NCBI GenBank assembly: GCA_965261395.1
Contig: OZ253462.1
Coordinates: 1,952,001-2,016,000 of the forward strand
Source of the DNA: Candidatus Latescibacterota bacterium
GTDB lineage: Bacteria > Latescibacterota > UBA2968 > UBA8231
Reading direction: 5' to 3'
DNA: 64,000 bases
Translations under genes and position numbers: made by a program
Shown here: positions 18,605-34,658 of the stretch, in pieces
Numbering within the stretch: position 1 is the first letter of the stretch
Layout: each line of letters opens with the position of its first letter
Notes under the pieces: model-generated
Told to the model about the DNA's origin: nothing
Database searches by the model: none
What the model saw: only the letters and a program-made list of their open reading frames with translations

Positions 18605-21600
18605 ATGTCATCCGTTATGTTAGCCGATTTGCCCATGGACTTCGCTGCCGACCCGGATGCTGTCTCGGCCGTCGCCGAGGCGCATCGTCTCGCCTATGGA
18701 CACCTTTTTAATTCCGCGTTCGCCGCGGAAACGTCGCTAATTGACCCGCTCCCGCATCAGCGCATTGCCGTGTACGAGCAGATGCTGCAACAGGCTCCCC
18801 TGCGATTCTTGCTGGCCGACGACGCGGGGGCTGGCAAGACCATCATGACGGGCCTATACGTACGCGAGATGCTGTCCCGCCGTCTCATCCGTCGCGTGCT
18901 CATCGTGCCGCCGGCTGGCTTGGTCGGCAACTGGGAGCGGGAAATGCGCACCCTGTTTCGCCTGTCATTCCGCATCGTCAGCGGCGAAGACGCACGCACC
19001 GGCAATCCCTTCCTCGGCCCAGAGAGCGACCAAGTAATCGTCAGCATCGACACCTTGGCCGGGGAACGCATGTTTGGCCACCTCAAAGACTCGCAAACCG
19101 ACGCCTACGACCTCGTCGTCTTCGACGAGGCGCACAAGCTGTCTGCGGATCGTCTGCCGGATTTCCGGGTGCGCAAGACGGATCGGTACAAGCTGGCGGA
19201 AGCCCTAGCCGGTGCCGAGGTAGAAGATGAGCGCTGGGAGCTTCCTTGGTCGGTCCAACACCTGCTGTTGCTGACGGCCACGCCGCACATGGGCAAGGAT
19301 TATCCCTATTACTTCCTGTGGCGTCTGTTGCTGCCGGACGCGCTCTCGACCTACGACGCGTTCGACACTTTTCCCCGCGACTCTCGGCAGAGGCACTTCA
19401 TCCGCCGGACCAAGGAGGAGATGGTCCGCTTCGATGGTGCTCCGCTGTATCCACAGCGAAATTGCGCCACTCTGAGCTACGATCTCTCGCAGGGGCCAGA
19501 GAGCGAACAGGAGCTCTACGACGAGACGACCGAATACATCGGGTATTATTACAACCGCGCCGGAGTGTTGAACCAGTCCGCTGCCCGCTTGGCGATGAGC
19601 GTCTTTCAGCGGCGTCTCGCTAGTTCCACCTATGCCCTTCTACGCTCCTTTGAGCGTCGGCAAGAAAAGCTCGCAGGGCTGATTGACGACATTCGGAATG
19701 GACGACTTACCGAGGAACAGCTCGTGCGCCAGCAACGGAGCCTCGACAAGCTCGACGACATCTTTGAAACGCGGACCGCCGATGAGGACGCCGCAAGCGA
19801 GGACGGAGGCGAGCAACACGAGGAGTTCGAGGGCAAGGCTCTAAGCGGCACCGTTGCAGTCAACCTCAGCGAACTTGAGGTAGAACGTCGCCAAGTCGAA
19901 GCGTTGCTCAACAAGACTCGGAGCCTGTTCGACACCGGCGAGGAGTCCAAGTTCGAGAAGCTGCGCGAAGTGCTCCGCGACCCGCAATACCTCGACGAGA
20001 AGCTCATCATCTTCACCGAGCACCGCGACACTGCGGAGTTTTTGGTGCGCCGGCTCGAAGGGCTTGGCTTCACAGGTCAAGTTGCTCTGATCCACGGCGG
20101 CCTGCCCTACCAGGAGCGCGAGCGCCAAGTTGAGTTTTTTCGTCAATCAGCAGCGGAAGGCGGGGCCAACTACCTAGTGGCCACCGACGCTGCTGGCGAA
20201 GGGATTAACCTGCAATTCTGCTGGCTGATGGTGAACTACGACATCCCCTGGAACCCGGCGCGGCTCGAACAGCGGATGGGGCGCATCCATCGCTACGGCC
20301 AGAAACACGATCCAGTGGTCATCGTCAATCTGGTGGCCGGCGGTACGCGCGAGGGGCGGGTGCTGAAGACCCTGCTCGACAAGCTCGAAGCGATCCGTCG
20401 CCAGCTTCAATCCGATAAGGTGTTTGACGTGGTGGGTCGGCTGTTTGAGGGGTTGTCCATGCGGGACTATCTGGAGCAGGCGGTCACTGGAGATGCCGAC
20501 AGCATTGCCGAGCGCTTGGAGGGCGACCTTACAGAGCAACAAGTCCAAGCTCTTGCGGAGCGAGAGCGCGTACTCTTTGGAGAAGGCGGCGAGGTTCGCC
20601 GGCGACTGGCGCAGCTCAACGACGAGGCAGAGCAGGAAAACTATCGCCGCTTGCTGCCCGGATACGTGCGCCGTTTTGTGGAGCGAGCCGCGCCGCTGCT
20701 CGACTTGCGCATCGAGGGCGACTTAGGAGCCACTTTTGCGCTGGTGCCCGGCCGGCCCCGCGCGGCTGATGCCTTGTTGCCCGCACTTGAGGTCTATCCC
20801 GAGGAAGCGCGCGAGCGGCTGACGGTGTATAAGCCGACGGACCACGAAAGCGCGGTCTGGATGCACCCCGGCGAGCCGGTGTTCGACGCCCTCTCAGCCG
20901 CGATCCTGAGTCGCTTCGGGCGCGACGGGCTCAAGGGTGCCGTGTTCACCGACCCTTATGCGACCGAGGCATATCTATTTCATATCGCACTGATTTCTGT
21001 CGAACAGCACAGCCAAGGCAACGCAGGGCCGACCGCCCCGCAGCCCCTCGAATCGCGCCTAATCGGGCTGCGCCAATCGAGCAACGGCACCATAGAGGAG
21101 TGCCCGGTCGAGCATCTACTTCTGCTCAGAGGTGCCCACGGCTTCGCGCCAAGCCGGGTGCCACTGGCTACCCTAGCTCGCGACATGGTCGCTGATACTG
21201 CCCAGTTCATCCGCGAGGACGTGAACGAGCGCGTCGTGCAAGCGCATCGCCAGCGCCGCCTCGACGATCTGCCCGCACGCCTAAAGTTCGTCAATCGCGG
21301 CTTCGACTTTCAGGCTGCCGAACTCGCCGCCGCCCGATCCCGCCTTAGCAAAATGGCCCGCGATGGTAATCGCCACGCCCAAGGGGAACTCTCCAAGGTC
21401 AAGGAACGGCAGCGGAGCTTGACGGCTTCCCGCAATCATCGCCTCGACGATCTGCGGGCCGAACCAGACCTCATCCAGGCCGGTGAGATCGAGTTCCTCG
21501 TTCACGCCCTCGTGGTGCCGGCCCAAGATTCCGAGGAGACTGAGCGCTACGATGCCGATGTCGAAGCTATCGCTGTGGAGGTGGCTACCGATTATGAGAA

Positions 21601-21949
21601 GCGCTTCGGTGCCGAGGTACAGGATGTTTCGCGGCCCGAGCTAGCGCGGCGCGCCGGGCTAACCGACTGGCCAGGCTTTGATCTGCTTTCCCGCCACGCC
21701 GGAGAAGAACGACGCGCCATAGAAGTCAAGGGACGGGCCGGTACCGGCGGCATTGAAATGAGTGATAATGAATGGGCCAAGGCTTGCAATCTCCGCGACG
21801 AATACTGGCTCTACGTCGTCTTTGACTGCGCCACGCCTCACCCGCGTTTGGTGCGGGTGCGCGATCCATTTGCCAAGCTGCTCGTCAGGAGCCGCGAGTC
21901 TATCGCCTATATTATCAACCCAAGGGCTGTTATAGAGGCAGCCGAGTGA
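18605..21949 (+). CDS. SNF2-family helicase with C-terminal DUF3883-like PD-(D/E)XK nuclease
   Basis: PLPHQ, LADDAGAGKT, DEAH, TATPH, GEGINLQ and QRMGRIHRYGQ motifs. C-terminal GFDLLS...IEVKG. Confidence 0.9.
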   Translation: MSSVMLADLPMDFAADPDAVSAVAEAHRLAYGHLFNSAFAAETSLIDPLPHQRIAVYEQMLQQAPLRFLLADDAGAGKTIMTGLYVREMLSRRLIRRVLIVPPAGLVGNWEREMRTLFRLSFRIVSGEDARTGNPFLGPESDQVIVSIDTLAGERMFGHLKDSQTDAYDLVVFDEAHKLSADRLPDFRVRKTDRYKLAEALAGAEVEDERWELPWSVQHLLLLTATPHMGKDYPYYFLWRLLLPDALSTYDAFDTFPRDSRQRHFIRRTKEEMVRFDGAPLYPQRNCATLSYDLSQGPESEQELYDETTEYIGYYYNRAGVLNQSAARLAMSVFQRRLASSTYALLRSFERRQEKLAGLIDDIRNGRLTEEQLVRQQRSLDKLDDIFETRTADEDAASEDGGEQHEEFEGKALSGTVAVNLSELEVERRQVEALLNKTRSLFDTGEESKFEKLREVLRDPQYLDEKLIIFTEHRDTAEFLVRRLEGLGFTGQVALIHGGLPYQERERQVEFFRQSAAEGGANYLVATDAAGEGINLQFCWLMVNYDIPWNPARLEQRMGRIHRYGQKHDPVVIVNLVAGGTREGRVLKTLLDKLEAIRRQLQSDKVFDVVGRLFEGLSMRDYLEQAVTGDADSIAERLEGDLTEQQVQALAERERVLFGEGGEVRRRLAQLNDEAEQENYRRLLPGYVRRFVERAAPLLDLRIEGDLGATFALVPGRPRAADALLPALEVYPEEARERLTVYKPTDHESAVWMHPGEPVFDALSAAILSRFGRDGLKGAVFTDPYATEAYLFHIALISVEQHSQGNAGPTAPQPLESRLIGLRQSSNGTIEECPVEHLLLLRGAHGFAPSRVPLATLARDMVADTAQFIREDVNERVVQAHRQRRLDDLPARLKFVNRGFDFQAAELAAARSRLSKMARDGNRHAQGELSKVKERQRSLTASRNHRLDDLRAEPDLIQAGEIEFLVHALVVPAQDSEETERYDADVEAIAVEVATDYEKRFGAEVQDVSRPELARRAGLTDWPGFDLLSRHAGEERRAIEVKGRAGTGGIEMSDNEWAKACNLRDEYWLYVVFDCATPHPRLVRVRDPFAKLLVRSRESIAYIINPRAVIEAAE

Positions 21950-22060
21950 CGCAGACGCGATTGCATGAATCAAACCCATAGGGAAAATTCTGAGGTAAGC
22001 GGTCTTGGCGGCACAGGTTGGCCGACAGCCGGCAGGACCCTCACCAGCGAGGAGTCACCC

Positions 22061-23662
22061 ATGATGACGACAACCATGCGTTTCTTCAACACCGCCGGTC
22101 CCATCAAGGCGGAAATGCACTACCACATATCGCCTCTAGCGCGGCTCGACTGCGACGACTTCCTACAGCTCATCCGGCAGGAAAAGTACTTCGTCCTGCA
22201 CGCGCCGCGCCAGACCGGCAAGACCTCCGCGCTCCTAGCGCTGCGCGATGAACTGAACGCCAGCGGCGAGTTTCGCTGTGTGTACGTCAACGTCGAGGTC
22301 GGCCAGACGGCGCGGGAGGATGTGGCCGCGGCTATGCGGGCGATACTCAGCGCATTGGCTCGTGCGGCGCGCCACGCGCTCGATGACTTGTTTGTCACCG
22401 ACATTTGGCGCGGCATTCTCGACGACGCTGGCCCCAACGACGCGCTGGGGGAGACCCTTGCCTGCTGGGCGGCCGCGGATCCAAAGCCGCTGGTACTGAT
22501 GATCGACGAGGTTGACGCCCTGATCGGCGACACCCTGCTAGCCGTGCTGCGGCAATTGCGCGCTGGCCACCCAGAGCGCCCGCGCCGGTTTCCCCAGAGC
22601 GTGATTCTGTGCGGGGTGCGCGACGTGCGCGACTACCGCATCCGCTCTACCGCCGAAAACGCAATCATCGCCGGGGGCAGCGCGTTCAACATCCGCGCCG
22701 AGTCCCTGCGCCTCGGGGACTTCTCGCGCGCCGAGGTTGAGTCCCTGTTGGCGCAGCACACCGAGGAGACCGGCCAAGCGTTCACCGAGGAGGCACGACG
22801 CGACATCTGGGAGCTAACCCAAGGCCAACCGTGGCTCGTGAACGCCCTCGCCTACGAAGCCTGCTGGGGCAACAAGGCCGGGCGTGACCGCAGCCGGTCG
22901 ATCACCGCCGACGCCATCCAGGACGCCCGCGAGCAGTTGATCCTGCGCCGCGAGACGCATCTGGATCAGCTCACCGACAAGCTGCAAGAAGAGCGGGTGC
23001 GGCGGGTGGTCGAGCCGCTGCTGAAAGGAGCCGATGATGCCGGCTCGTTTGCTGCCGCCGATCTGCAGTACGTGCGCGATCTCGGACTCGTGCGTACCGA
23101 CGATCCCATTGCCATCGCCAACCCGATCTACCGCGAGGTGATCCCGCGCGACCTCACCTACACCACCCAAGCAGGCTTTCACCACGACCCGGCTTGGTAC
23201 GTCGATGCAGACGGCACCCTGCAGGTGGGCAAGCTCCTAGCCGCGTTCCAAGAGTTTTTCCGCGAGCATTCCGAGCACTGGATGGAGCGGTTCCAGTACA
23301 AGGAGGCGGGGCCGCAGTTGCTACTCCAAGCGTTTTTACAGCGCATCGTGAACAGCGGCGGCCGGATCGAGCGGGAGTATGGCTTGGGTCGGATGCGCAC
23401 AGACTTGCTGCTGATATGGCCAGTGGGCGGGGATCGCGGCAAGACGCAGAAGGTCGTCATTGAGTGCAAGGTGCTGCGTCGAGGGCTGGAGCGGACGCTG
23501 CGCGAAGGGCTGGAGCAGACGCGCGCCTACATGGATCGCTGCGCGACGGCGGAAGGACACCTCGTGCTCTTTGACCGCAGCGAGGGCAAGTCGTGGGACG
23601 ACAAGGTGTATCGCCGCGAGGAAACTGAAGGCGGCGCACCGGTCGAGGTGTGGGGAATGTGA
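22061..23662 (+). CDS. AAA-like P-loop ATPase with C-terminal PD-(D/E)XK-like domain (copy 1)
   Basis: MRFFNTAGP, APRQTGKT (Walker A), MIDEVD (Walker B) and RTDLLL...IECK. GGAG RBS before 22061. Confidence 0.85.
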   Translation: MMTTTMRFFNTAGPIKAEMHYHISPLARLDCDDFLQLIRQEKYFVLHAPRQTGKTSALLALRDELNASGEFRCVYVNVEVGQTAREDVAAAMRAILSALARAARHALDDLFVTDIWRGILDDAGPNDALGETLACWAAADPKPLVLMIDEVDALIGDTLLAVLRQLRAGHPERPRRFPQSVILCGVRDVRDYRIRSTAENAIIAGGSAFNIRAESLRLGDFSRAEVESLLAQHTEETGQAFTEEARRDIWELTQGQPWLVNALAYEACWGNKAGRDRSRSITADAIQDAREQLILRRETHLDQLTDKLQEERVRRVVEPLLKGADDAGSFAAADLQYVRDLGLVRTDDPIAIANPIYREVIPRDLTYTTQAGFHHDPAWYVDADGTLQVGKLLAAFQEFFREHSEHWMERFQYKEAGPQLLLQAFLQRIVNSGGRIEREYGLGRMRTDLLLIWPVGGDRGKTQKVVIECKVLRRGLERTLREGLEQTRAYMDRCATAEGHLVLFDRSEGKSWDDKVYRREETEGGAPVEVWGM

Positions 23663-23684
23663 GCGGATGACGGCTTCTAAAAGG

Positions 23685-23870
23685 ATGGCTATCGCCCGCG
23701 TCCGGCAGAGGATAGTAGAGGGTGGGCACGATGTGCCGGAGCCTGTGGTTCGTCGTCGGTTTTTAGCGGGCTAGCGCAATTTTGAATCAATCTATCGAGA
23801 GCTTGTAGATGAGTGGGCTGTTTACGATAATTCGGGTAATTTGAAAATCTTGAGGATATGGCCATTCTAG
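23685..23870 (+). pseudogene. C-terminal remnant of a zeta-toxin-like P-loop protein
   Basis: MAIARVRQRIVEGGHDVPEPVVRRRFLAG*RNFESIYRELVDEWAVYDNSG. Internal TAG at 23772 and no Walker A. Confidence 0.72.
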
Positions 23871-23883
23871 ACGGAGGAGCAAT

Positions 23884-24108
23884 ATGAAGACGATTGGAGT
23901 CGCAAAATTCAAGGAGCAGTGCTTGGCCTTGCTCGACCAGCTCGATGACGATGGGTTGGTCATCACCAAGCACGGTAAGCCAATAGCCCGAGTCGTCCCC
24001 TGCGATCAGCAAGACGCCGACCTGATCGGCAGCCTACGACACAAGATCAAAATCCGGGGTGACATCCTCACGACCGGCGTCCGCTGGGATGCAGATGCTC
24101 AATCTTGA
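23884..24108 (+). CDS. Phd/YefM family antitoxin
   Basis: KFKEQCLALLD...VITKHGKPIARVVP. GGAG RBS. Confidence 0.88.
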   Translation: MKTIGVAKFKEQCLALLDQLDDDGLVITKHGKPIARVVPCDQQDADLIGSLRHKIKIRGDILTTGVRWDADAQS

Positions 24109-24196
24109 CACACATATTCTCATCTTCGCGAATGTTCCGTTGCTCACGCGAGACCAAATCATACGGCGTTCGCAGGTTGTTCCGCTAGCCTCGTAG
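24095..24196 (+). pseudogene. VapC/PIN toxin with central deletion
   Basis: 33-aa ORF overlapping the antitoxin end: MLNLDTHILIFA joined directly to NVPLLTRDQIIRRS, i.e. the two termini of a VapC. Confidence 0.75.
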
Positions 24197-24244
24197 AGCA
24201 AATACCCTAGAAATGGTGAGACATAGGTGCTCAATGTCAAATCA

Positions 24245-24385
24245 CGTTGCTCGGGGTAACGGCGCTGGAGTCCCTCGGTATCGAAGTTGACCCGCTCAAC
24301 CAGCGACTGAAGAAGCTGCCGGCTGTGCGGCTCAAGAGCCTGCGGACGAGATCGAGAAAGGAGAAGCAGCATGGGAGTACGACAG
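24245..24385 (+). repeat. Protease-3'-end/partner-5' junction repeat, copy A (orphan)
   Basis: CGTTGCTCGGGGTAACGGCGCTGGAGTCCCTCGGTATCGAAG...GTGCGGCTCAAGAGCCTGCGG, similar to 26291, 27183 and 27901. No upstream protease body. Confidence 0.9.
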
Positions 24386-24669
24386 CCGCGTTATAGCAAA
24401 GAGGAGTTCGCCCGGCGCGGTCAGGCGCTCTACGAGCAACGAGTGAGGCCGCAGGTGGAAGAAGGCAATAGCGGTAGGATCGTGGCGATTGATATTGAGA
24501 CGGGCGAGTTCGAGGTAGCGGACGACCCACTTGCCGCATCTGACCAACTTTTTGCGCGTTGTCCAGATGCGCAGCCGTGTTAGTGCGTATCGGGCACCGG
24601 GCGCTACATTGGTTCGGGCAGTCGCATGCTAGTGCACGATATAAGGCAATGGAGACGCCAACATGCTGA
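24371..24669 (+). pseudogene. Small protease-partner protein (DUF5678-like), apparent frameshift near 24580
   Basis: EEFARRGQALYEQ...IVAIDIETGEFEV, homologous to 26423..26701. Stops at 24583, but VRIGHRA continues in another frame, matching VRVGHRA in the paralog. Confidence 0.65.
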
Positions 24670-25973
24670 AGCGCATACATATCCGAGGATACAAGTCTCT
24701 TGAAGACGTCGAAGTGTGTCTTACCCAGCTTGTGGTTCTGTTCGGACCGAATGCCGCTGGTAAGAGCAATTTGCTCGATGCTTTGCAACTGCTGTCGAAG
24801 CTGGGGACGAGCCGGACGCTCAAAGAGGCTTTTGATCCACCCTATCGCGGCAAGCCACTCGAATCCTTTACCATCGGGCAAAAAGGCATCAAGGGGCTGC
24901 TCGAACAGGAGCGGCTGTCGTTCTCGATTGAAGCCGACCTGAGCTTGTCGGATGCGGTCGTTGAGACCGTCAATCGCCAGATACTAGAAATGCGTCGTCC
25001 GCACGGCGAGGGCGAGTCTAAAGAGAGAAGCAAGCTCCCCGCCCGTGTCCGCGAACGCGACTTGCGCTACCGCATCGAGGTGGAGATGCTGCCCAGATCG
25101 GGTCTCCTGCGCGTGGCGGACGAATACCTAGCCGCCCTCAACAGCAAGGGCGAGCCCACGGGTAAACGCAAGCCCTTTCTCGAACGGCAAGACGAAAGAA
25201 TCCACCTGCGGCACGAAGGACAGGCGCACCCCACCTGTTATGACCGTTATCTGGATCACAGCATCCTCTCTATGCCGCATTATCCGCCGCACTATCCCCA
25301 CTTGGCGGCGGCGCGGCGCGAACTGGAGAGCTGGCTGTTCTTCTACTTTGAGCCACGCGAACGCATGCGCGCCGCCAATCCAGTAAAAGAAGTGCGCCAT
25401 ATCGGCTTGATGGGTGAAGAACTCGCCGCCTTCCTCAACACCATGAAGTCAACCGATGAAAGACAGTTCAGGGGAGTCGAGAAGGCGTTACATGCGCTGA
25501 TGCCGAACATCGACGGCATTGAGGTGGAGGTGAGCGATCTCGGCGAGGTCGAGCTTCGCCTCAAGGAAGGCGGTGTTGCGATACCGGCCCGCGTACTCTC
25601 CGAAGGTACGCTGCGGATGCTCGGACTGCTAGCTTTGACCGGCGTTGACGACGCCCCGGCATTGGTCGGGTTCGAGGAACCAGAAAACGGCGTCCACCCG
25701 CGCCGCATCCAGTTGATCGCGGAATTGCTGAAAACACAGGAGACCCTGCAACAGACTCAGTACATCGTCACCACGCACTCGCCGATCCTGCCCGATCTGC
25801 TCGCGGACAGCTCCCTGTTTGTGACGAACCGGATCGACCGCAAGACACGAATTGAGCCGTTTTCTACTTGGGGACCATTGGGACGGCGCGATGATTTTAG
25901 CCAAGTGCTCTCCGACGAGGAGGACGGACTTCCAGTTTCAACACGTATCTTGAGAGGGGACTTCGATGCGTGA
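24663..25973 (+). CDS. ABC-type (AAA_21-like) ATPase, defence-associated
   Basis: GYKS, GPNAAGKS, LSEGT, FEEPENGVHP and VTTHS motifs. Confidence 0.88.
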   Translation: MLKRIHIRGYKSLEDVEVCLTQLVVLFGPNAAGKSNLLDALQLLSKLGTSRTLKEAFDPPYRGKPLESFTIGQKGIKGLLEQERLSFSIEADLSLSDAVVETVNRQILEMRRPHGEGESKERSKLPARVRERDLRYRIEVEMLPRSGLLRVADEYLAALNSKGEPTGKRKPFLERQDERIHLRHEGQAHPTCYDRYLDHSILSMPHYPPHYPHLAAARRELESWLFFYFEPRERMRAANPVKEVRHIGLMGEELAAFLNTMKSTDERQFRGVEKALHALMPNIDGIEVEVSDLGEVELRLKEGGVAIPARVLSEGTLRMLGLLALTGVDDAPALVGFEEPENGVHPRRIQLIAELLKTQETLQQTQYIVTTHSPILPDLLADSSLFVTNRIDRKTRIEPFSTWGPLGRRDDFSQVLSDEEDGLPVSTRILRGDFDA

Positions 25974-26016
25974 TTCGCCGCTTGAGGCGGCGGAGCAAAC
26001 TGAAAGTGAAAGGAGA

Positions 26017-26487
26017 ATGAAAATGGGTGCAGTAAACGCCAACGTAGTCATCAGCAACCCAGCTAATCGAGCCAAAAGCTGGGAAGAGGTTTTTCTGGTT
26101 GATACAGGCGCGACCGACAGCCTCGTCCCGCGACAACACCTGGAGGCCATCGGCCTCAAACCCGAAGCACCGCGGACGTACCTATTGGCCGATGGCAGTG
26201 AAGTCCAGATGGACATTGCGGTTGCGCGAATCGAACTCATGGGGGAAATCGTGGGAGGCACGGTTCTTTTTGGAGACGCAGACACCGAGCCGTTGCTCGG
26301 GATAACGGCCCTGGAGTCCCTCGGTATAGAAATTGATCCGCTCAACCAGCGACTGAAAAAGCTGCCGGCTGTGCGGCTCAAGGATCTGCGGAGGAAAGCG
26401 AGATTGGAGAAAGGAGAACAGCATGGGCACAGATCGCACTTACGGCCCCGGGGAGATAGCAGCCCAGGGGGAAGCCATTTATCGTGA
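26017..26487 (+). CDS. Clan AA (retropepsin-like) aspartic protease
   Basis: FLVDTGATDS, LADGS and EPLLGITALE motifs. AGGAG RBS before ATG 26017 (track start 25966). Confidence 0.85.
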   Translation: MKMGAVNANVVISNPANRAKSWEEVFLVDTGATDSLVPRQHLEAIGLKPEAPRTYLLADGSEVQMDIAVARIELMGEIVGGTVLFGDADTEPLLGITALESLGIEIDPLNQRLKKLPAVRLKDLRRKARLEKGEQHGHRSHLRPRGDSSPGGSHLS

Positions 26488-26701
26488 ACAGATCCAGTCT
26501 AAAGTTGAGCCAACGGAGAAAGGGAAATTCGTAGTCATTGATGTTGAGACCGGAGACTATGAGATCGACGCAGGGGACGCGGTGGCTACGCGGCGGCTTT
26601 TGGAGCGGAGGCCGTCGGCCGTTACATACGGAGTGCGCGTCGGCCATCGCGCAGCATACAGCCACGTCGGTGGCTTCCGGAATCCCAAGCACGATGATTA
26701 A
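26423..26701 (+). CDS. Small protease-partner protein (DUF5678-like)
   Basis: GEAIYREQI...GKFVVIDVETGDYEI...VRVGHRA. AAGGAG RBS. Stop overlaps the next protease start. Confidence 0.75.
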   Translation: MGTDRTYGPGEIAAQGEAIYREQIQSKVEPTEKGKFVVIDVETGDYEIDAGDAVATRRLLERRPSAVTYGVRVGHRAAYSHVGGFRNPKHDD

Positions 26702-27074
26702 GGGAAAGATTAGCGAGAATCAACAGGCGTTGCTTCCTATAGACATTATAGACGGTGAAGGCCGCCCGAGGTCATTGGAGGTTATCCTAGACACCGGGTT
26801 TACTGGGTATTTGACACTGCCTCCGGAATCCATCCGTCAATTGGGACTGACCTCCATTGGTCAACGGACCTTTGAGCTAGCTAATGGGGAACTCTTTGAG
26901 TTTGCGGCCTACCTCGCCATGGTGTCCTGGCATGGACGCCTCCGTGATGTGCTGGTGCTGCAGTCGGACAGTGTTCCGTTGCTGGGCATGACTCTGCTCT
27001 GGGGTAGTCGAGTTACTGTGGATGCGTTGGACGACGGAGAGGTTATCATTGAAGAGCTTCCACCAGCCCAGTGA
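26694..27074 (+). CDS. Clan AA aspartic protease (AF_0612-like)
   Basis: MIKGKI...VILDTGFTGYLTLP...LANG...PLLGMTLL. Confidence 0.85.
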   Translation: MIKGKISENQQALLPIDIIDGEGRPRSLEVILDTGFTGYLTLPPESIRQLGLTSIGQRTFELANGELFEFAAYLAMVSWHGRLRDVLVLQSDSVPLLGMTLLWGSRVTVDALDDGEVIIEELPPAQ

Positions 27075-27110
27075 CGGGAAGTCGAAGGCCCATGCGCCGC
27101 GGGCGACGTT

Positions 27111-27348
27111 CGGTTGCGCGAATCGAACTCAGGGGGGAAATCGTGGGAGGCACGGTTCTTTTCGGGGACGCAGACACCGAGCCGTTGCTCGGGGTAACGG
27201 CTCGGGAGTCCCTCGGTATCGAAGTCGATCCACTCAACCAGCGACTGGAGAAGCTGCCGGCCGTGCGGCTCAAGAGCTTGCGGAGGAAAACGAGATAGGA
27301 TCAAGGATAACAACATGGGCACAGATCGCACTTACGGCCCCAGGGAGA
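27111..27348 (+). repeat. Diverged direct duplication of ~26219-26456 (protease 3' half plus partner gene start), containing junction copy C
   Basis: CGGTTGCGCGAATCGAACTC...ATGGGCACAGATCGCACTTACGGCCCC occurs at both sites. This copy lacks the DTG motif. Confidence 0.9.
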
Positions 27349-27349
27349 A

Positions 27350-27520
27350 ATGTCGAGCAAGACTACCGAGCAACGTGACACCATTATGAAGTATTCAGAC
27401 GCTTTCGCCCGTATAGACGAGGAAGAAGAGAGAGAGGAGATAGAAAGCGCTTACTCTGCACTAATTGAGGATGTCCGTCGAGAGGTCGAGAGTCTTGAGG
27501 CGAATGAGCCGAAGAGATAG
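27350..27520 (+). CDS. Short acidic hypothetical ORF or gene remnant (56 aa)
   Basis: Manual translation MSSKTTEQRDTIMKYSDAFARIDEEEEREEIESAYSALIEDVRREVESLEANEPKR. No recognisable motif. Confidence 0.3.
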   Translation: MSSKTTEQRDTIMKYSDAFARIDEEEEREEIESAYSALIEDVRREVESLEANEPKR

Positions 27521-27560
27521 GCGAACCCGCCTAACATTCGGGATCGAGTATGCGGATGTA

Positions 27561-27622
27561 GCGAGTCTATCGCCGACACCATCACCCCAAGAGCTTTTAT
27601 AGAAGCAGCCGAGTAACGCAGA
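27561..27622 (+). repeat. Second copy of the SNF2 helicase 3' end (21894-21955)
   Basis: 62 bp with 9 mismatches by manual alignment. Encodes ESIADTITPRAFIEAAE* versus ESIAYIINPRAVIEAAE*, and both are followed by CGCAGA. Confidence 0.9.
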
Positions 27623-27626
27623 GGAA

Positions 27627-27959
27627 ATGAAAATGGGAGTCCCGCACGTCATGGGCACCATTCGCAATCCCGTCGAACCGGACAGAACCTGGGAAGGGCT
27701 ATTTCTGGTCGATACGGGAGCGACCGATTGCCTAGTACCGCGACCCTGCCTGGAGGCTATAGGTCTCGTCCCCAAAGGGCAACGGGTGTACGAACTGGCA
27801 GACGGGCGCGAGATCAGGATGGACATCACGACCGCCGATATCGAGTTCATGGGGGAGATCGTCGGCGGAACGATTGTATTTGGCAAGGCGAATGCCGAAC
27901 CGCTACTCGGGGTGACGGTCCTGGAATCGGTGGGAATTGAAGTCGATCCGAGTAGCTAG
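27627..27959 (+). CDS. Clan AA aspartic protease, C-terminus shortened by a TAG (junction copy D runs on to ~28025)
   Basis: FLVDTGATDC and EPLLGVTVLE motifs. After the TAG the frame continues TLKRLPSVRLK, as in the paralog (QRLKKLPAVRLK). Confidence 0.8.
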   Translation: MKMGVPHVMGTIRNPVEPDRTWEGLFLVDTGATDCLVPRPCLEAIGLVPKGQRVYELADGREIRMDITTADIEFMGEIVGGTIVFGKANAEPLLGVTVLESVGIEVDPSS

Positions 27960-28943
27960 ACCCTGAAAAGGCTTCCCTCAGTGCGCCTCAAGAGCCTGCG
28001 GGCGAGATCGAGATGGAGTACGACACGCTTACCGTCTCTGACCACAAAACCGAGTCTGACGACTCCAAGATAATCTGCTTAGAAAGTACGAGGGCTATGA
28101 CGGATAGAAATTGGGAGAATGAGTTCAGCCAGTGGGCAAGACCACCTGGCAAAACCGAGGATGAGCGTTGTGAGAATGCGATCAAAGCTATTCGCAATGC
28201 GATTGCCAAAAGCGACAAGTTGAAAAACCGGAGCCTTATGGTCTTCCCGCATGGCTCGTATCGTAACCGCGTCAATGTCCGACAAGACAGCGACGTCGAC
28301 GTGGGGGTTCTTTGCTACGAGTCTTTTTTTTATCACCTCCCCGAAGGGACCACCAACGAGACTTTTGGCTTTTCTGTCCCAGCAGAGTACGGCTACACTC
28401 AGTTTAAAAATGAACTTGTGGAAGCCTTGGCTGAGCACTTCGGATCTGGAGCGGTCCGTCGTGGGAACAAAGCCATCGACGTGCGAGAGAACACATATCA
28501 CGTGGAAGCTGATGTTGCGCCGTTCTTTGAATATCGGCACTACTCAGAAAACAGAAATTATCTATGCGGAGTGGCCTTAAGTCCTGACAACGGCGAGATG
28601 ATCTACAATTACCCCGAGCGAATACTCGATAGCTGGCCGCATATACCACTGCACTACGAGAATGGGGTCTCCAAAAACAAAACAACCCATCGTTCCTACA
28701 AGGGAGTCGTGCGTATTCTTAAGAAAATACGCAACGAAATGGACGATGCTTTCATTGCTGCGGCTAAGCCGATTCCAGGATTTCTGATCGAGTGCATGGC
28801 TTGGAACGCACCGACCGCGTGTTTCAAAGGAGATACGTGGGACGGCAAAGTACAAGCTGTGCTTCTACACCTTTGGTCGAGCACCAAAGACGACGCGAGT
28901 TGTAAGGACTGGAAGGAGGTCAACGACATCAAGTTTCTCTTTA

Positions 28944-29875
28944 GAAGCCGTCTGAAAACCCTTGCTGTAGCCGGTATTTGAATCGGCGTACTCATCGAGC
29001 CATATTCAGGTTTCGCGACAAAATCTGAACAGAAAGGCTCGTATGATGAGTACGCCTAGTAGGCAATATGCCACCGATGTAACCGATGTGCAATGGCGTC
29101 GGATCGAACCGTTGCTGCCGGCTTCGACATGGCAGCCGAACGGTCCGGGTCGGCCACCGCGGGATCGACGCCAGATCGTCAACGGCCTTTTGTATCTGAC
29201 CAAGACCGGTTGTCCTTGGGCTTTGTTGCCTTCTTGTTTTGGACCGTGGAAAACGGTGTATGATTACTTTCGTCGCTGGAGTCTACAAGGGGTCTGGCCG
29301 CAGGTATTGGATCGACTCACCCAGCGGGAACGCCGCCTCAACGGACGGGCTCCAACGCCGTCGGCTGGCGTAGTCGATAGTCAGACGATCAAGACGGCAA
29401 CCCATGGTAAAACAACCGGTTATGACGCCGGAAAAAAGGTCAAGGGGCGCAAGCGTCATCTGTTGGTCGACACCTCGGGCTTGCTTAGACAGGTGGTGGT
29501 CACCGCCGCCGATGTAGAGGATCGGGACGGCCTCAAGCAGGTGTTGACCCGCTTGGGGGCCTCCGGCGTAGCCCGGTTACGCAAACTGTGGGGCGATGGC
29601 GGCTATCGAGGCGATCCGATCCGAACGTGGGTGGCTAACGTAAAAAAGACGCACAAAATAGACTTGGAAGTCGTCGCCAAACAAGGCCCCGGCTTTGAGG
29701 TGTTACCACGCCGTTGGGTCGTCGAGCGCACGTTTGCGTGGTTGATGAATTTTCGCCGACATGCCCGAGATTATGAGGTGTTGACCCACCATAGCGAAGC
29801 CTTGATCCAGATTGCTATGATCCACTTGCTGCTCAAACGGATCAAATAGAAAAAATATAGTTTTCAGACGGCTTC
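28944..29875 (+). mobile_element. IS5-family insertion sequence (IS1031-like), 932 bp
   Basis: Perfect 16-bp IRs GAAGCCGTCTGAAAAC (28944-28959) and GTTTTCAGACGGCTTC (29860-29875). TTA duplication at 28941-28943 and 29876-29878. Confidence 0.95.
29043..29849 (+). CDS. IS5 family DDE transposase
   Basis: TGCPW, VDSQT, GYDAGKKVKGRKRH, DGGY and RWVVERTFAW motifs. Confidence 0.95.
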   Translation: MMSTPSRQYATDVTDVQWRRIEPLLPASTWQPNGPGRPPRDRRQIVNGLLYLTKTGCPWALLPSCFGPWKTVYDYFRRWSLQGVWPQVLDRLTQRERRLNGRAPTPSAGVVDSQTIKTATHGKTTGYDAGKKVKGRKRHLLVDTSGLLRQVVVTAADVEDRDGLKQVLTRLGASGVARLRKLWGDGGYRGDPIRTWVANVKKTHKIDLEVVAKQGPGFEVLPRRWVVERTFAWLMNFRRHARDYEVLTHHSEALIQIAMIHLLLKRIK

Positions 29876-29958
29876 TTAACTCAGCTCAACCGTGGAAGCG
29901 GTACGAGGCTCATGCTTTCATTGAAGCCGCGTGGAGCTATATCCAAGTAAGATAAAGA

Positions 29959-30603
29959 ATGAAAATCGAGCGCACCCATATCACTGTTTTCGTAGCTATA
30001 GCTGCGCTTGTGTGGTGGGGCACTTTGTTATGGCAGGATACGCCAGTTGCTTGGGAACACGGAAAGCCCTTCACTGTGGTCGTAAGTGTTCTTGGAGTGT
30101 TTGGGCTTGTCTTTGATCATTTTTTGTGGCGTTGCCGGTTGTTTCACGGATGGTTGGTTAAACGGCCAGATCTCCGCGGGACTTGGCGCGTCGAACTCCA
30201 GTCAAGCTATATCAATCCGGAGACCGGAGAGCGTGTGCCTATGATTGTCTGCTACATGGGGGTCAAGCAGACGCTATCGGAACTCAAGATGCACTTGATG
30301 ACACCAGAATCTGAATCCTGGTCTATCGCGAGCCACATTAGGCCCTCTCCAAGCGGAAACGGCTATCAGGTGATCTGTGTCTACAAAAACAAGCCTAACA
30401 TCCATCTTCGCGACGAACGAATTAGTGAGATACATAACGGAGCTCTCATCATCGATACTCATGGTTCTGGTGTTCGGCCCGATACCTTCACGGCAGAATA
30501 CTGGACCGACCGCAAGACGGTGGGGAGCATGAAATTTGAAAGTCGTATCAGCCAAGTTTTCACGCACTTTGAAGACGCGGATCAGCACTTCGAGCAAAAC
30601 TAA
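29959..30603 (+). CDS. cap15: CBASS 2TM beta-barrel effector (Cap15-like)
   Basis: Two N-terminal TM helices, PDLRGTW, QT...TPESES, YKNKP, HNGA and YWTDR motifs. Starts 3 bp after the restored cyclase stop. Confidence 0.82.
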   Translation: MKIERTHITVFVAIAALVWWGTLLWQDTPVAWEHGKPFTVVVSVLGVFGLVFDHFLWRCRLFHGWLVKRPDLRGTWRVELQSSYINPETGERVPMIVCYMGVKQTLSELKMHLMTPESESWSIASHIRPSPSGNGYQVICVYKNKPNIHLRDERISEIHNGALIIDTHGSGVRPDTFTAEYWTDRKTVGSMKFESRISQVFTHFEDADQHFEQN

Positions 30604-30658: not shown

Positions 30659-33600
30659 ATGACCGACAAACGCCTCATCGAAGTCGCCTTCCCCCTGAAG
30701 CAGGTCTCCCTCGACTCTGTCCACGAGAAGAATGTGCGTCACGGCCACATCTCCACGCTGCACATCTGGCCGGCGCGGCGACCGCTAGCCGCGGCGCGGG
30801 CGGCGCTGATTGCGACGTTGCTTGCCGATCCCGGCGATCCCAAGCAACGGCAGGAGATTCTGGATCGCATGGCGGGTCGCGTCGTCGAGAAAATTGAGCG
30901 CAAGCGGGTGAATGGGCGGGTGGTCGAGAAGGTGAAGGAGGAAACGGTCGGCGGCATTCTTCATTGGGGGCGCGAGAATGATCCCGATCTTGCGTGGTTC
31001 CGCGCAGAGATTCGCAAGGCGTACGGCGGGCGGGCACCCAAGGTGCTGGACCCGTTTGCCGGTGGCGGTGCCATTCCGCTCGAAGCCATGCGCCTCGGCT
31101 GCGACGTGACCGCCATGGACATCAACCCGGTGGCTTGGTTCATCCTCAAGTGTACCCTCGAATACCCGCAGAAGCTCGCTGGTCAGACCCGCCCGCTGCC
31201 CGAATTCGCGCTGGAGGACGGCGAATTCATGGAGGCGTTTCTGAAGGCGAAGGGGTTTAAGGGTGCCAGCTTGCGGACCTTCTTGGAGCGGCTCGGCCAC
31301 GGCGATGGCGGTGAAATCCAGCTCGATCTCTTGCAACAGGACGATCCCATACTGGAGGCGGATCTCGCTTGGCACGTGCGCGCTTGGGGCCGGTGGGTGC
31401 TGGCCAAGGCGCGCACGGAGTTGGCTGCGCACTATCCGACTTATGCTGAGTTCGAGCCGCTGAAGGCGGATGAGGAGTATGAGCCGCGTCCGATGCGACT
31501 CTTAGAGATTGATGATGCGGGAATTCCGCAGGTCGATCTGCTCAACGCCGAGTTCGACGCCGCCTATCTCAAGGACCCGCGCAACCCGCGCTGGATCGCC
31601 AAGCCGACGGTGGCCTATCTCTGGGCGCGGACTGTAACCTGCAAACAGTGCCGCGCCACCCTGCCGCTGCTCAAGACGCGCTGGTTGTGCAAGAAGGATC
31701 GCAAGCGCGTGCTGCTGACGATGGAGCCGAAGGCCGACCAGACTGGCGTTGTCTTCGGCGTGCAGAGCGACGTGCCGCACAACGGCGGCAACGCGGCGCA
31801 GCGGCGGGAGCACGACAAGCGCATCGGAGCGGGCACTATGTCGCGCACCGGCGCAACCTGCCCGTGCTGTGGCGCGATCACGACCATGGCGGATATCCGT
31901 TTTGAAGGCCGCGCTGGGCGGTTGGGCGCGGCGATGACGGCTGTGGTAGTGGATGGGCCGAAAGGCAAGGGTAAGGAATACCGCTTGCCGATGGACCACG
32001 AGCGGGCGGTGGCAGAAGTGACTGAGGAACAGCTTCAGGCGCTGTATGCGGACATCCCGTTTGGGCTGCCGGAGGAACCAATCATTGAAGACGCGAAACG
32101 AAACACATGGTGTGTTCAATATGGGGAAAATTCCTGGAGAAAGCTGTTTACGAACCGGCAGCTATTGGCCCTTGGCTCGTTCGTTTTGATCCTTCGGAAA
32201 CTAATGAAAGAACTTGATGATTGGCCGGAGAGTTGGCGCGAGGGGCTGATTGCAAATCTTGCACTCGTGAACGACCGGCTGGCAGACTACTCCAGCACAA
32301 TCTGCTCTTGGCACAACGGAAGAGAGGTAATTAGAAATACTTTTGGGCGATTTGCTCTGCCTATCGTCTGGGATTATACCGAAGTCAATCCGTTATCAGA
32401 TACATCTGGCAACTTCCGCGGTGCACTTGATTGGGTTTCTAAGGTCTGCGAGCATCTGCAAAAAAGCATCGATTCAGCCCGAAGCGGAGAGAGCATTTGT
32501 GCATCGGCCATCACCTTCCCAACCGATAGTGTCGATCTGATATTAACCGACCCACCTTACTACGATGCAATCGGTTATTCCGTCCTTATGGACTTCTTCT
32601 ATGTCTGGCTTAGGCGATCGACACATGGATTGTCCGCCAAGGTCGAATCGGTCTTCTCCGATGCCCTTGGCCCCAAATGGGATCATGGCACCAGCGACGG
32701 CGAGCTCATAGACGACGCCAGCAGATTTGGTGGCGACAGAGAGCGGTCCAAGCAGAACTATGAAGACGGCATGGCCCGATCGTTCCGCTCTTGTCACGCT
32801 GCGTTGGGGCCAAACGGGCGGCTCGTGGTTGTGTTTGCCAACAAGCATCCCAATGCTTGGGAGACGTTGATCGCTGCCCTGATTCGGGCCGGCTTCGTCG
32901 TCGATGGCTCGTGGCCCATCCAGACCGAGATGAGCAACAGAACCCGCTCACTAGGGTCGGCCGCTCTCGCCTCCTCCGTCTGGATCGTCTGCAAAAAGCG
33001 CCCCCCCGCTCGCCCCGGCTGGGACACCACCGTCCTCAACGAAATGCGCGACAACATCACCCAGCAACTCCGCGACTTCTGGGACGCCGGCATCCGCGGC
33101 CCCGACTTCGTATGGGCCGCAACCGGCCCAGCCCTCGAAGCCTTCAGCAAGCACCCCGTAGTCAAAAAGGCCAACGACCCGAACCAACTAATGACCGTCT
33201 CGGAATTCCTGCGCGAAGTGCGGCGCATGGTCGTCGATTTCGTCGTCGGCCGCGTGCTGACCCAAGACGGCGACCAAGACCTGCCCCGTGCCACGACACG
33301 GGGAGCCGCGACCGGCCTCGACGACGTAACCACCTACTACCTGCTCCATCGCCACGACTTCGGCATGGCAGAAGCCCCCGTCGGCGGCTGCATCCTCTAC
33401 GCCCTATCGTGCAACCTCTCCGACTCCGCCCTCGTCAACCAGCACGACCTCCTCGCCCAAGCGGGCAAAGGAAGAGCCAGCGACGAACTCGAAGAGGACG
33501 ACCCACCCGAGGACGCAGAAGAGACAAGCGGCGGTGCCAAAGTCAAGCTCAAACCCTATAACCGGCGACAGGGCCGCAACCTCGGCCTCGAAGCCCCAGG

Positions 33601-33880
33601 CGGACGCCCCGTCCCCCTCATCGACCAAGTCCACAAACTCATGCACCTCTGGCGCGCCGGCGACCAAGTCAAAGTGGACGACTACCTCGACACCCGCGGC
33701 CTCCAGCACAACGCCCTATTCAATCAAATCCTCCAGGCCCTCATCGAACTAGCCGCCGCCGGCTCCGACGAGCGCTCCATCCTCGAAGCCCTAAGCAACC
33801 ACCTAGCCGCTCGCGGCGGTGTTCAGGCACAGAGGCAGAGGCAGCTTCAATTCGGAACGAAAACGGATGGCAATGGATAA
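30659..33880 (+). CDS. DUF1156 domain DNA methyltransferase (amino-MTase)
   Basis: LHIWPARRPL, LDPFAGGG (SAM motif), TDPPYY (catalytic) and CxxC pairs. Confidence 0.9.
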   Translation: MTDKRLIEVAFPLKQVSLDSVHEKNVRHGHISTLHIWPARRPLAAARAALIATLLADPGDPKQRQEILDRMAGRVVEKIERKRVNGRVVEKVKEETVGGILHWGRENDPDLAWFRAEIRKAYGGRAPKVLDPFAGGGAIPLEAMRLGCDVTAMDINPVAWFILKCTLEYPQKLAGQTRPLPEFALEDGEFMEAFLKAKGFKGASLRTFLERLGHGDGGEIQLDLLQQDDPILEADLAWHVRAWGRWVLAKARTELAAHYPTYAEFEPLKADEEYEPRPMRLLEIDDAGIPQVDLLNAEFDAAYLKDPRNPRWIAKPTVAYLWARTVTCKQCRATLPLLKTRWLCKKDRKRVLLTMEPKADQTGVVFGVQSDVPHNGGNAAQRREHDKRIGAGTMSRTGATCPCCGAITTMADIRFEGRAGRLGAAMTAVVVDGPKGKGKEYRLPMDHERAVAEVTEEQLQALYADIPFGLPEEPIIEDAKRNTWCVQYGENSWRKLFTNRQLLALGSFVLILRKLMKELDDWPESWREGLIANLALVNDRLADYSSTICSWHNGREVIRNTFGRFALPIVWDYTEVNPLSDTSGNFRGALDWVSKVCEHLQKSIDSARSGESICASAITFPTDSVDLILTDPPYYDAIGYSVLMDFFYVWLRRSTHGLSAKVESVFSDALGPKWDHGTSDGELIDDASRFGGDRERSKQNYEDGMARSFRSCHAALGPNGRLVVVFANKHPNAWETLIAALIRAGFVVDGSWPIQTEMSNRTRSLGSAALASSVWIVCKKRPPARPGWDTTVLNEMRDNITQQLRDFWDAGIRGPDFVWAATGPALEAFSKHPVVKKANDPNQLMTVSEFLREVRRMVVDFVVGRVLTQDGDQDLPRATTRGAATGLDDVTTYYLLHRHDFGMAEAPVGGCILYALSCNLSDSALVNQHDLLAQAGKGRASDELEEDDPPEDAEETSGGAKVKLKPYNRRQGRNLGLEAPGGRPVPLIDQVHKLMHLWRAGDQVKVDDYLDTRGLQHNALFNQILQALIELAAAGSDERSILEALSNHLAARGGVQAQRQRQLQFGTKTDGNG

Positions 33881-34361
33881 GAAAACGGTATACATCGAGA
33901 CCTCGACCGTGTCATATTTGACGGCTCGACCTACGAATGATCTGCTGGCGTCTGCTTGGCAAATGATCACGGTTGAGTGGTGGGAAACGCAGAGAATCCG
34001 ATTCGACCTTTATACCTCTGATGTTGCGCTTGAAGAGGCTGGAAAGGGCAACCTTGAGGCGGCGGCACGACGTCTTGAAGCGTTATCCGGTATTCCCATA
34101 TTGCCCATTACGGGGAGCGTCGTCGCGTTGTCCAAAGTGCTTCTCCAAGGAAGAGCCCTGCCGGCTAAGGCCCTAGACGATGCCCTGCATATTGCCGTAT
34201 CCGCGGTACACGGCGTCGATTATCTTCTGACTTGGAACTGTCGGCATCTTGATAATGCCGAAACCAAACCCATCGTGCGGAGCATTTGTAGCATACACGG
34301 GCATACTAGTCCCGAAATATGCACCCCTCAAGAACTTATGGGAGTAGTTGAAGATGTCTGA
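33873..34361 (+). CDS. PIN-domain (VapC-like) toxin
   Basis: VYIETST, DALHIA, LLTWNCRH and ICTP motifs. Confidence 0.85.
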   Translation: MDKKTVYIETSTVSYLTARPTNDLLASAWQMITVEWWETQRIRFDLYTSDVALEEAGKGNLEAAARRLEALSGIPILPITGSVVALSKVLLQGRALPAKALDDALHIAVSAVHGVDYLLTWNCRHLDNAETKPIVRSICSIHGHTSPEICTPQELMGVVEDV

Positions 34362-34551: not shown

Positions 34552-34565
34552 GCTTGGTCGGAGGA
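34507..34565. repeat. Imperfect hairpin resembling a degenerate integron attC site
   Basis: GCCGACCAAGGCGCTCCAG...TGAGCTTGGTCGG. The arms pair with bulged bases, but the canonical AAC/GTT cores are not intact. Confidence 0.4.
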
Positions 34566-34658
34566 TTATGAATATGTCTCTCCGACGCGCTTATTCAATG
34601 ATATGCCTGAGCCTGTCGAAGCCGAGTATCGAGTGAATAGTCAACCGGAGGAAATCCG

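Follow-up and report, generated by a model that had tools for sequence, protein, structure and literature searches.

Repeated protease-gene ends in the Hma locus of a Latescibacterota bacterium as probable scars of serial displacement

How does a defense locus come to carry the same short repeat four times, each time in front of a different cargo? The question is raised by a stretch of 64,000 nucleotides (nt) of DNA from Candidatus Latescibacterota bacterium (assembly GCA_965261395.1, contig OZ253462.1, positions 1,952,001 to 2,016,000, forward strand), hereafter called the window, in which all unlabeled coordinates below are counted. The array of repeats and cargo sits between hmaA and hmaB of an Hma anti-phage system. 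The original prediction regarded the repeat as a junction between the end of a protease gene and the start of a small partner gene, and proposed that this junction serves as a recombination handle in an integrase-free, integron-like array of defense cassettes. Our analysis favors, with a probability of about 60%, a different answer, namely that serial displacement (recombination anchored by homology at one end and joined illegitimately at the other) left the repeats behind as scars, and that they are not a purpose-built docking site.

A repeat search recovered four direct repeats of 121 nt (copy A, 24245-24365; B, 26291-26411; C, 27183-27303; D, 27901-28021), of which B, C, and D are 88%, 88%, and 71% identical to A, respectively. 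A blastn comparison of the region with the whole window returned these four sites and no others (A/B, E 1.4e-41; B/C, E 6.9e-90 over 238 nt; B/D, E 8.9e-38 over 338 nt), which rules out chance. All four copies encode, in frame, the peptide LLG(V/I)T(A/V)(L/R)ES(L/V)GIE(V/I)DP...LK(K/R)LP(A/S)VRLK, and, judged by its sequence, every copy is the 3′ end of a gene for a clan-AA (TIGR03698), retropepsin-like aspartic protease. Protease 1 and protease D scored 78.4 and 78.7 bits against TIGR03698, whose curated cut-off is 57.35 bits, and both carry DTGA; in size (about 125-135 amino acids [aa]), DTG motif, and score above the cut-off they are like the clan AA proteases of that family. The positions and the peptide of the repeat had thus been read correctly, as had the lack of DTG in copies A and C, the tail GAGATCGAGA..GGAGTACGACA common to A and D, the tail ATGGGCACAGATCGCAC common to B and C, and the placement of the copies at seams between unrelated gene blocks. 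The extent needed correction for two copies: D is the end of a full-length paralogue whose likeness to B continues beyond the junction, and C reaches further upstream than had been stated. The genes and relics on which the argument depends are as follows.

18605-21949, forward strand: hmaA, SNF2/DEAD helicase with a NOV_C end (PADLOC HmaA, E 3.9e-167; Pfam Helicase_C, NOV_C)
About 21956-22010, forward strand: fifth protease relic, internal, about 55 nt, codons ~64-84 ('ARIELMGEIVG'), located in the spacer that follows the stop of hmaA
24245-24396, forward strand: copy A, 5′-truncated protease relic from codon ~90 to the TAG at 24394-24396, without the catalytic DTG (profile positions 269-360)
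About 25975-26016, forward strand: hmaA 3′ relic ('PLEAAEQTE'), now the leader of protease 1
26017-26487, forward strand: protease 1, intact clan AA aspartic protease with DTGA, its 3′ end being copy B (26291-26411)
About 27104-27111 to 27298, forward strand: copy C, 5′-truncated protease relic from codon ~63, without DTG (profile positions 197-360)
27561-27622, forward strand: hmaA 3′ relic, 62 nt, 85% identical to 21894-21955, directly upstream of protease D
27627-28012, forward strand: protease D, full-length paralogue from another clade with an in-frame TAG at 27957-27959, its 3′ end being copy D
30659-33880, forward strand: hmaB, DUF1156 methylase (PADLOC HmaB, E 2.6e-120)
36503-39790, forward strand: hmaC, DUF499 ATPase (PADLOC HmaC, E 5e-76)

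The HmaA helicase, the HmaB methylase, and the HmaC ATPase are all encoded on one strand, the composition of an Hma system. From left to right, the locus consists of hmaA, a protease relic, an ATPase/Phd block, stump A with partner A and HEC-01A, an hmaA stump with protease 1 and the partner B/protease 2 pair, stump C, an acidic open reading frame (ORF), an hmaA stump with protease D and a CBASS (cyclic oligonucleotide-based antiphage signaling system) block, and hmaB. Protease D, which is 70% identical to B at the nt level along the whole gene and not at the junction alone, is a pseudogene now.

For comparison, we used the best 80 of at least 595 confirmed protease loci (at least 600 stretches matched; one genome per species), denoted L with a number. 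According to their records they belong to about 10 phyla (Latescibacterota, Poribacteria, Acidobacteriota, Binatota, Nitrospirota, Chloroflexota, Gemmatimonadota, and others); most are metagenome-assembled genomes (MAGs), and, judging from the record labels, they appear to be of the sponge-symbiont type. A close relative among these loci is L001 (87-94% nt identity), in which the end of hmaA is followed by a spacer and an intact protease gene. Synteny of the window with L001 breaks off after 22008 and resumes at 24245, from which we concluded that the block 22009-24244 replaced codons 1 to ~89 of protease A. What is left, copy A, matches the intact L001 protease at its 3′ end with 94% identity. 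The fifth protease relic is common to L001, L015, and L041, and a weak nhmmer match falls at the same spot in L001.

The protease gene is not the only one to have left stumps. Three hmaA 3′ ends are present in the window (the real one at 21949 and the relics at ~25975-26016 and 27561-27622), each of them just upstream of a protease copy, and L011 displays the same pattern. The two relics represent two different sequence types; the first aligns with the hmaA ends of L002 ('LIEAAEQG', then stop) and L011. The blastn homology of this relic and the protease 1 module begins at 25972-25975, and the junction between 25973 and 25974, the only one for which both parents are known, shows about 2 nt of shared letters. 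On the other flank, 5′ stumps of hmaB, starting from its ATG and lying upstream of cargo, were found in L011 (9938-10046), L041 (12282-12378), and L077 (7860-7954 and 8406-8524, on both sides of the protease gene), with further ones in L013 (13269-13352) and L016 (9376-9421). Their identity to the resident hmaB is 97% in L011, 89% in L041, and 92% in L077. They end at about +61, +75-89, +97, +103, +104, and +113; a single end site for them was considered and dropped because the ends are scattered from +61 to +113. Among 88 nhmmer hits, three are orphan protease pieces, and one weak hit comes in addition; the three cover profile positions 269-360 (A), 197-360 (C), and 285-340 (L060, codons 95-113). 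The L060 piece is 56 nt long and 96% identical to the adjoining full copy. A left border common to it and stump A was rejected, as the two lie 16 nt apart and their right ends differ.

L001 has itself lost much of its hmaA. The gene is reduced to the last ~650 nt, with ~2.7 kb missing (L001:7285-7997 versus window 18616-21295), and fragments from two distinct CD-NTase genes (8423-8536, 9423-9622) are situated between the L001 protease and HEC-01A. The shortened hmaA and the CD-NTase pieces indicate that the Hma locus of L001 is decaying too.

These findings led us to propose that the Hma locus of the window acquired DNA blocks, one after the other, from further loci of the Hma type, two or three of them at the least. 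Homology within a conserved gene (hmaA, and perhaps also the protease gene) would have anchored each incoming block, whose far end would have been joined by illegitimate recombination that cut into the resident hmaA or protease gene. The 3′ stump of the cut gene would then have been pushed downstream together with whatever followed it. With hmaA as the left and hmaB as the right anchor, at least four such events would be needed for the window. The stumps would be short because long direct repeats would recombine and so delete the cargo, that is, through survivorship. The locus has the layout of a displacement array: a conserved upstream anchor (hmaA) is followed by variable downstream genes (the cargo), and 3′ stumps occur downstream of a full copy and separated from it by other genes (those of hmaA at ~25975 and 27561, and stump C after protease 1), stump A lying downstream of the inserted block.

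Although the original prediction knew of no earlier description of such an array, an analogous integrase-free one has been published for type VI secretion (T6SS) and Rhs loci. In the available text of PMC5361080, T6SS effector-immunity modules of Vibrio cholerae are described as forming arrays through sequential displacement, and Rhs loci as undergoing C-terminal displacement; the authors proposed homology-facilitated illegitimate recombination and remarked on the likeness to integrase-free integrons. Related arrays, strings of orphan cdiA-CT/cdiI modules of contact-dependent inhibition (CDI) systems, are described in the accessible part of PMC3150448. As far as these texts go, the window resembles such arrays in its conserved upstream anchor, beside which new modules enter without an integrase, and in the 3′ end of the displaced gene being pushed back with its downstream partner, which yields strings of 3′ stumps with differing genes after them. 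It differs in what is displaced: there, according to the same texts, the displaced gene encodes a toxin and the retained partner is an immunity gene kept by selection, whereas here it is a small protease gene in an anti-phage operon, partner A is truncated, and the partner of copy C is reduced to 35 nt. Moreover, the window and its relatives, unlike those arrays as described, contain stumps of both flanking core genes (hmaA 3′ and hmaB 5′).

The embedding of defense systems in Hma, BREX, DISARM, and type I restriction-modification (R-M) operons has been reported in a preprint (bioRxiv 10.1101/2024.01.29.577857), according to whose available text embedded genes occur in 62.7% of 1,485 Hma systems, HEC-01A being one such cargo, and the origin of the embedding is treated as unexplored ('genomic sink'). 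Like the loci in that text, the window carries varied defense cargo, HEC-01A included, between hma genes and in the same orientation; unlike them as presented in its main text, it has gene stumps at the seams. In that main text the terms recombination, aspartyl, and peptidase have no occurrences, and 'protease' appears once, in another sense. The window and its relatives, with hmaA, hmaB, and protease stumps at the cargo seams, carry a readable record of how defense genes become embedded, one that points to homology-anchored recombination between related defense operons, following the logic proposed for toxin-immunity arrays.

The proposal that the protease-end/partner-start junction is itself the handle, working without an integrase (for example through RecA acting on the repeats) and giving the cargo a translation start, has several observations in its favor. 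The copies stand at block borders, and four breaks after the protease cluster within ~10 nt. The stub frame after copy C stops at 27387-27389 with its ATGA overlapping an in-frame ATG of the acidic ORF, and the hmaB stub of L011 likewise ends in an ATGA overlap on the ATG of the next gene. The cargo between protease and hmaB was different in all 14 Hma loci viewed, with PADLOC matches of many kinds for 21 of 35 ORFs, so that varied defense genes do follow the protease in Hma relatives, as had been expected. Finally, as also predicted, no integrase or recombinase, tyrosine recombinases (IntI) included, was found by Pfam among 47 window proteins (21 + 26), the only related enzyme being an IS5-type DDE transposase inside the CBASS block.

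The properties of the repeat as DNA, however, do not fit a site. The difference at synonymous codons was 0.58 in codons 90-120 versus 0.53 in codons 1-89 (77 of 81 genes; four dropped because of register or stop), which indicates no DNA-level constraint, and the 3′ segment is the most conserved stretch of the protease as a protein (pairwise aa identity 0.85-0.94), its conservation as DNA not exceeding the protein's needs. No attC-like hairpin was found in the four units, folded as DNA on both strands (z -0.34 to +2.27 against 200 shuffles each). Nor was a fixed crossover point: the left ends of the stumps lie at codon ~90 in A, ~63 in C, and 95 in L060, and the right-hand breaks span -17 (L015) to +35 relative to the partner ATG. 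An integron, too, is an ordered array of unrelated genes with a repeated element before each and a fixed point adjoining; the window differs from it in having no IntI, no folded attC-like strand, and no fixed crossover, its repeat being coding and conserved as protein only. Of the integron-like reading, therefore, the seams, the lack of an integrase, and the varied Hma cargo stand, and the fold, the fixed border, and the DNA-level site do not. The supply of a translation start is at odds with copies C and D as well, since the ribosome site is degenerate in C and was taken out in D by a 13-nt deletion. In addition, the HEC-01A module moves with borders away from the junction, and in 20 of the 80 loci, all of type I R-M context, the gene after the protease is invariably hsdS. 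As hmaA and hmaB leave stumps of the same kind, nothing singles out the protease/partner junction.

The partner start likewise turned out not to belong to the repeated unit. A partner homologue follows the protease in 1 of the 80 loci (L011), and two more (L001 and L061) keep only its first 27-31 nt. The partner is instead the first gene of a separate two-gene module, as the following features illustrate.

24371-24583, forward strand: partner A, 70 aa, 35% aa identity to partner B, without the conserved C-terminal third
26423-26701, forward strand: partner B, 92 aa, of no known family, its stop overlapping the start of protease 2 (ATGATTAA)
26694-27074, forward strand: protease 2, 126 aa, DTGF, distant paralogue of protease 1 (~30% aa; TIGR03698, 48.5 bits, below the cut-off)
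27315-27349, forward strand: partner stub after copy C, 35 nt from the start of a B-type partner gene (likeness to partner B stops at +33-35)

Partner B and protease 2 overlap by 8 nt (26694-26701). The three families comprise 273 (partner, ~91 aa), 236 (protease 2), and 4679 (protease 1) homologues, and among the matches listed those of the partner and protease 2 form 20 pairs with an equal-sized longest contig, contigs of 932 to 3397 nt included. A model of the partner B-protease 2 complex reached a score of 0.78, compared with 0.01 for the best of three controls; of 157 solved complexes, 116 attain the mark applied, as do 2 of 215 mismatched pairs, counts that are approximate because our own alignments were used. 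The model runs share at least 86% of contacts, with a pLDDT (predicted local distance difference test) of at least 82 for the partner, and the contacts involve residues 33 and 35-39 in the catalytic loop of protease 2 as well as the partner's conserved tail (75-83). The partner is thus predicted to lay its tail against the catalytic loop of protease 2 in an inhibitor- or substrate-like manner. As small genes that adjoin and overlap, with products predicted to bind each other, the two resemble a toxin-antitoxin pair, and protease 2 would be the true mate of the partner. The model makes this conserved pair, whose putative contact is between the conserved tail of the partner and the active-site region, of interest in its own right. 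Modeled alone, the partner gave a pLDDT of 79, and residues 73-92 of partner B (VGHRAAYSHVGGFR), its most conserved part, were disordered (pLDDT < 70). Foldseek returned 0 matches in the PDB at E ≤ 0.001 for the partner model, no Pfam, NCBIfam, or PADLOC match was obtained for partner A or partner B, and the stored-structure homologue of the partner (P0125) led only to unnamed 'hypothetical protein' clusters.

Since the partner belongs with protease 2, the junction is where two separate modules meet, namely the protease and the pair of partner and protease 2. The partner stubs are accounted for by the protease reading frame: in its A-type form this frame runs 26 nt into the partner gene, to the TAG at 24394-24396 (in the window, the first 26 nt of partner A, which has a homologue with 82% aa identity in L011, overlap the protease A frame), and the breaks, counted from the partner ATG, lie at about +24 in window D, +27 in L061, +31 in L001, and +33-35 in window C, i.e., within ~10 nt of that stop. 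Taking both sides together, we regard the junction as an unlikely recombination handle.

Two further explanations would do without any exchange between loci. According to the first, a protease-partner-protease 2 unit was duplicated locally in tandem and then decayed, with no DNA from outside. The 90% identity of B and C over 238 nt, at a distance of 892 nt, indeed resembles a 1.27-copy tandem unit; the AAA ATPase gene at 22044-23665 is a copy of the gene that follows hmaC in the same window (39793-41417; 83.7% nt identity by blastn, the match starting at the ribosome site and ending shortly after the stop); and the short L060 piece is nearly identical to the full copy beside it. Against this, copy D, at only 70% identity, comes from another clade, two copies carry hmaA 3′ relics of their own that differ in type, the two partners share only 35% of aa, and the G+C content of the CBASS block (48-52%, versus ~60-65% around it) is foreign. 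Moreover, copies A, B, and C are 89-94% identical to each other and 92-96% identical to the L001 and L011 copies, the latter from a different phylum by its record; as they are no nearer to each other than to those copies, a recent local duplication or homogenization is disfavored. In a quick tree, the only type of phylogeny computed for the protease, protease 1 (B) and the L001 protease belong to one clade of 14 rows (nine of them Hma; support 97), and protease D lies in the other main branch beside other Hma-linked copies. One recent tandem duplication, which the original prediction had named as a possible refutation, is therefore quite unlikely to be the source of the array. The second explanation is that the array is a product of metagenome assembly, variants of a single Hma locus from different strains having been wrongly joined, a concern given that most related records are MAGs and the region is rich in truncated genes. 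We consider this very improbable: repeats of at most 240 nt with 7-30% divergence do not normally cause false joins, and independent assemblies (L001, L011, L041, and L077) show like stumps; the L011 contig measures 216 kb, and the contigs or chromosomes of the other three exceed 1 Mb.

Several observations weigh against serial displacement as we propose it. The breaks are not random: the four junctions after the protease lie within ~10 nt of the A-type frame stop, the hmaB stumps all end in a stretch of ~50 nt, the HEC-01A (24643-25973) and AAA ATPase (22044-23665) modules have gene-exact borders, and two stub frames (window C and the hmaB of L011) end in the ATGA overlaps mentioned above. 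Such clustering could arise if an intact protease is selected for, dead DNA erodes, and long repeats are unstable, but a site- or region-specific process would fit it too. No donor-recipient pair was seen, so we infer the direction and order of events, and the order of the array is that given by the assembly. The identity gaps among A, B, C, and the L001 and L011 copies amount to a few bases in 92-164 nt, which by themselves are not significant. Finally, the 80 loci were ranked by likeness to protease 1, which favors full-length copies.

The clustered breaks, the gene-exact borders, and the ATGA overlaps leave room for region-specific, RecA-driven exchange. Here the conserved gene ends (for hmaA the final ~60 nt, for the protease gene the final ~110-240 nt, and for hmaB the initial ~60-115 nt) would act as portable homology arms: cargo between two direct repeats would loop out through RecA and re-enter another Hma or R-M locus, and the stub would provide the newcomer with a ribosome site and a coupled stop-start. 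If so, the arms would account for the concentration of breaks in stretches of ~10-50 nt and would amount to an integrase-free, integron-like way of building defense arrays, with the protease gene as the commonest left-hand arm. We hold this to be possible, if rather doubtful, and retain serial displacement as the preferred reading.

Whichever process moved the cargo, the protease family has its own distribution. Homologues of protease 1 numbered 4679 at E ≤ 0.001, and the best 120 of these 4679 are 64-100% identical to it; across the ~10 phyla of the 80 loci the aa identity of the protease is 66-93%. Seventeen of the 80 are Hma loci, and in 10 of the 16 with hmaA or a remnant of it in range the protease begins at most 210 nt from the hmaA end. 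The aa identity of hmaA itself is 63-81% in most loci that hold it whole and 49-55% in L002, L003, L005, and L008. In 18 of the 20 loci in which an HsdS cluster follows the protease, an HsdM cluster lies upstream (both clusters were built by BLASTP and annotated through their representatives). A highly conserved protease gene that habitually stands right after hmaA or between hsdM and hsdS merits attention.

In the hsdM-protease-hsdS loci (20 within L019-L074, e.g., L024:5460-5825 and L020:8001-8366), starts and stops are a few bases apart or overlap. These loci come from Latescibacterota, Nitrospirota, Acidobacteriota, and one gammaproteobacterium, and their protease copies form one clade in the quick tree (support 99). 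Other proteases follow housekeeping genes, encoding ClpX, a malate/lactate dehydrogenase (Ldh_2, before a GST [glutathione S-transferase] gene), mandelate racemase, CoA-transferases, and others (Pfam on 47 of 79 first-downstream and 35 of 53 upstream ORFs). Pyruvate:ferredoxin oxidoreductase and an amoB-like gene are further neighbors of this type (L057, L059, L022, L039, L075, L080, L040, L051, L073, L078, L079, L063, and L012), the protease being single and co-oriented. Several genomes have more than one protease copy, and conservation of the flank ends ~20-45 nt upstream. In housekeeping contexts, then, the protease behaves like a traveling hitch-hiker gene. Across phyla its copies group by operon context, with 17 context changes on the quick tree versus 34 in shuffles.

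In two Poribacteria Hma loci, two full proteases stand in tandem after hmaA (L010:6883-7239 and 8001-8381; L014:7209-7574 and 8001-8360), a D-type followed by a 1-type, i.e., the two clades of the window. L012 (CAMBFS010000153.1, 9.6 kb), labeled as a Klebsiella pneumoniae MAG, has its protease between genes for an amoB-like monooxygenase and a multicopper oxidase, and the Klebsiella label may reflect a binning error. A tblastn search of plasmid and phage records with protease 1 gave no match, therefore we saw no sign that it rides known plasmids or phages. PADLOC returned no match for any protease of the window. The nearest solved relative by sequence was the ApRick protease of Rickettsia (E 0.006). 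A literature search yielded no paper tying the protease family to defense operons, only an unrelated one on secreted Pseudomonas enzymes.

The remaining features of the array are its cargo and two short frames, listed below.

22044-23665, forward strand: AAA ATPase module, 533-565 aa (Pfam AAA_22/AAA_35), within the inserted block 22009-24244
23684-23836: short frame ending in '...VRQRIVEGGHDVPEPVVRRRFLAG', resembling the C-terminal stump of another gene
23884-24108, forward strand: Phd/YefM-type antitoxin gene (Pfam PhdYeFM, E 8e-8; NCBIfam phd_fam)
24093-24196, forward strand: stump of a toxin gene after the Phd antitoxin, 33 codons (ORF list)
24643-25973, forward strand: HEC-01A ABC ATPase module (PADLOC HEC-01A, E 2.2e-54), its gene-exact borders common to L001, L041, and L077
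27350-27520, forward strand: acidic ORF, 56 aa
28013-30603, forward strand: CBASS block, a CD-NTase gene split by an insertion sequence (IS), then a Cap15 2TM effector (29959-30603)

The short frame at 23684-23836, possibly zeta-toxin-like, has two copies in L077 (5074-5226 and 10436-10588) at 72-73% identity. The toxin stump at 24093-24196 is presumably PIN-like, judging from its N-terminal motif. The acidic ORF had no homologue in the 80 loci and no Pfam, NCBIfam, or PADLOC match.

Two of the predicted cargo labels could be made more precise. The 'ABC ATPase' is a homologue of HEC-01A, a family whose name reflects its embedding in Hma. The second gene of HEC-01 (HEC-01B, the TOPRIM partner) is missing in the window, where the protease 1 module begins at the ATPase stop; in L001 an overlapping 194-aa gene without a PADLOC match comes next. 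The 'CBASS' was correctly recognized as to type, but its CD-NTase gene is not intact. The cyclase (PADLOC Cyclase, E 8.4e-109, residues 32-315; family start near 28097) is split ~24 codons before its end by an IS5-family element of 940 bp (28940-29879), which encodes a transposase at 29043-29849 (DDE_Tnp_1 and DUF4096) and is bounded by inverted repeats of 20 nt (28940-28959 and 29860-29879; 95% complementary). Cap15 was identified by PADLOC (Effector 2TM, E 1.3e-60) and Pfam (Cap15_CD_rec). The cyclase frame seems to restart past the IS and to end just before the start of Cap15.

Embedded genes also occur between hmaB and hmaC (33819-36490). This second block consists of a PIN-domain gene, whose start overlaps the end of hmaB by ~60 nt, a PDC-M07A ABC ATPase gene (34659-35921), and an overlapping 190-aa gene without a family. 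L001 has the same PIN gene (84% nt identity) elsewhere, between its protease and HEC-01A.

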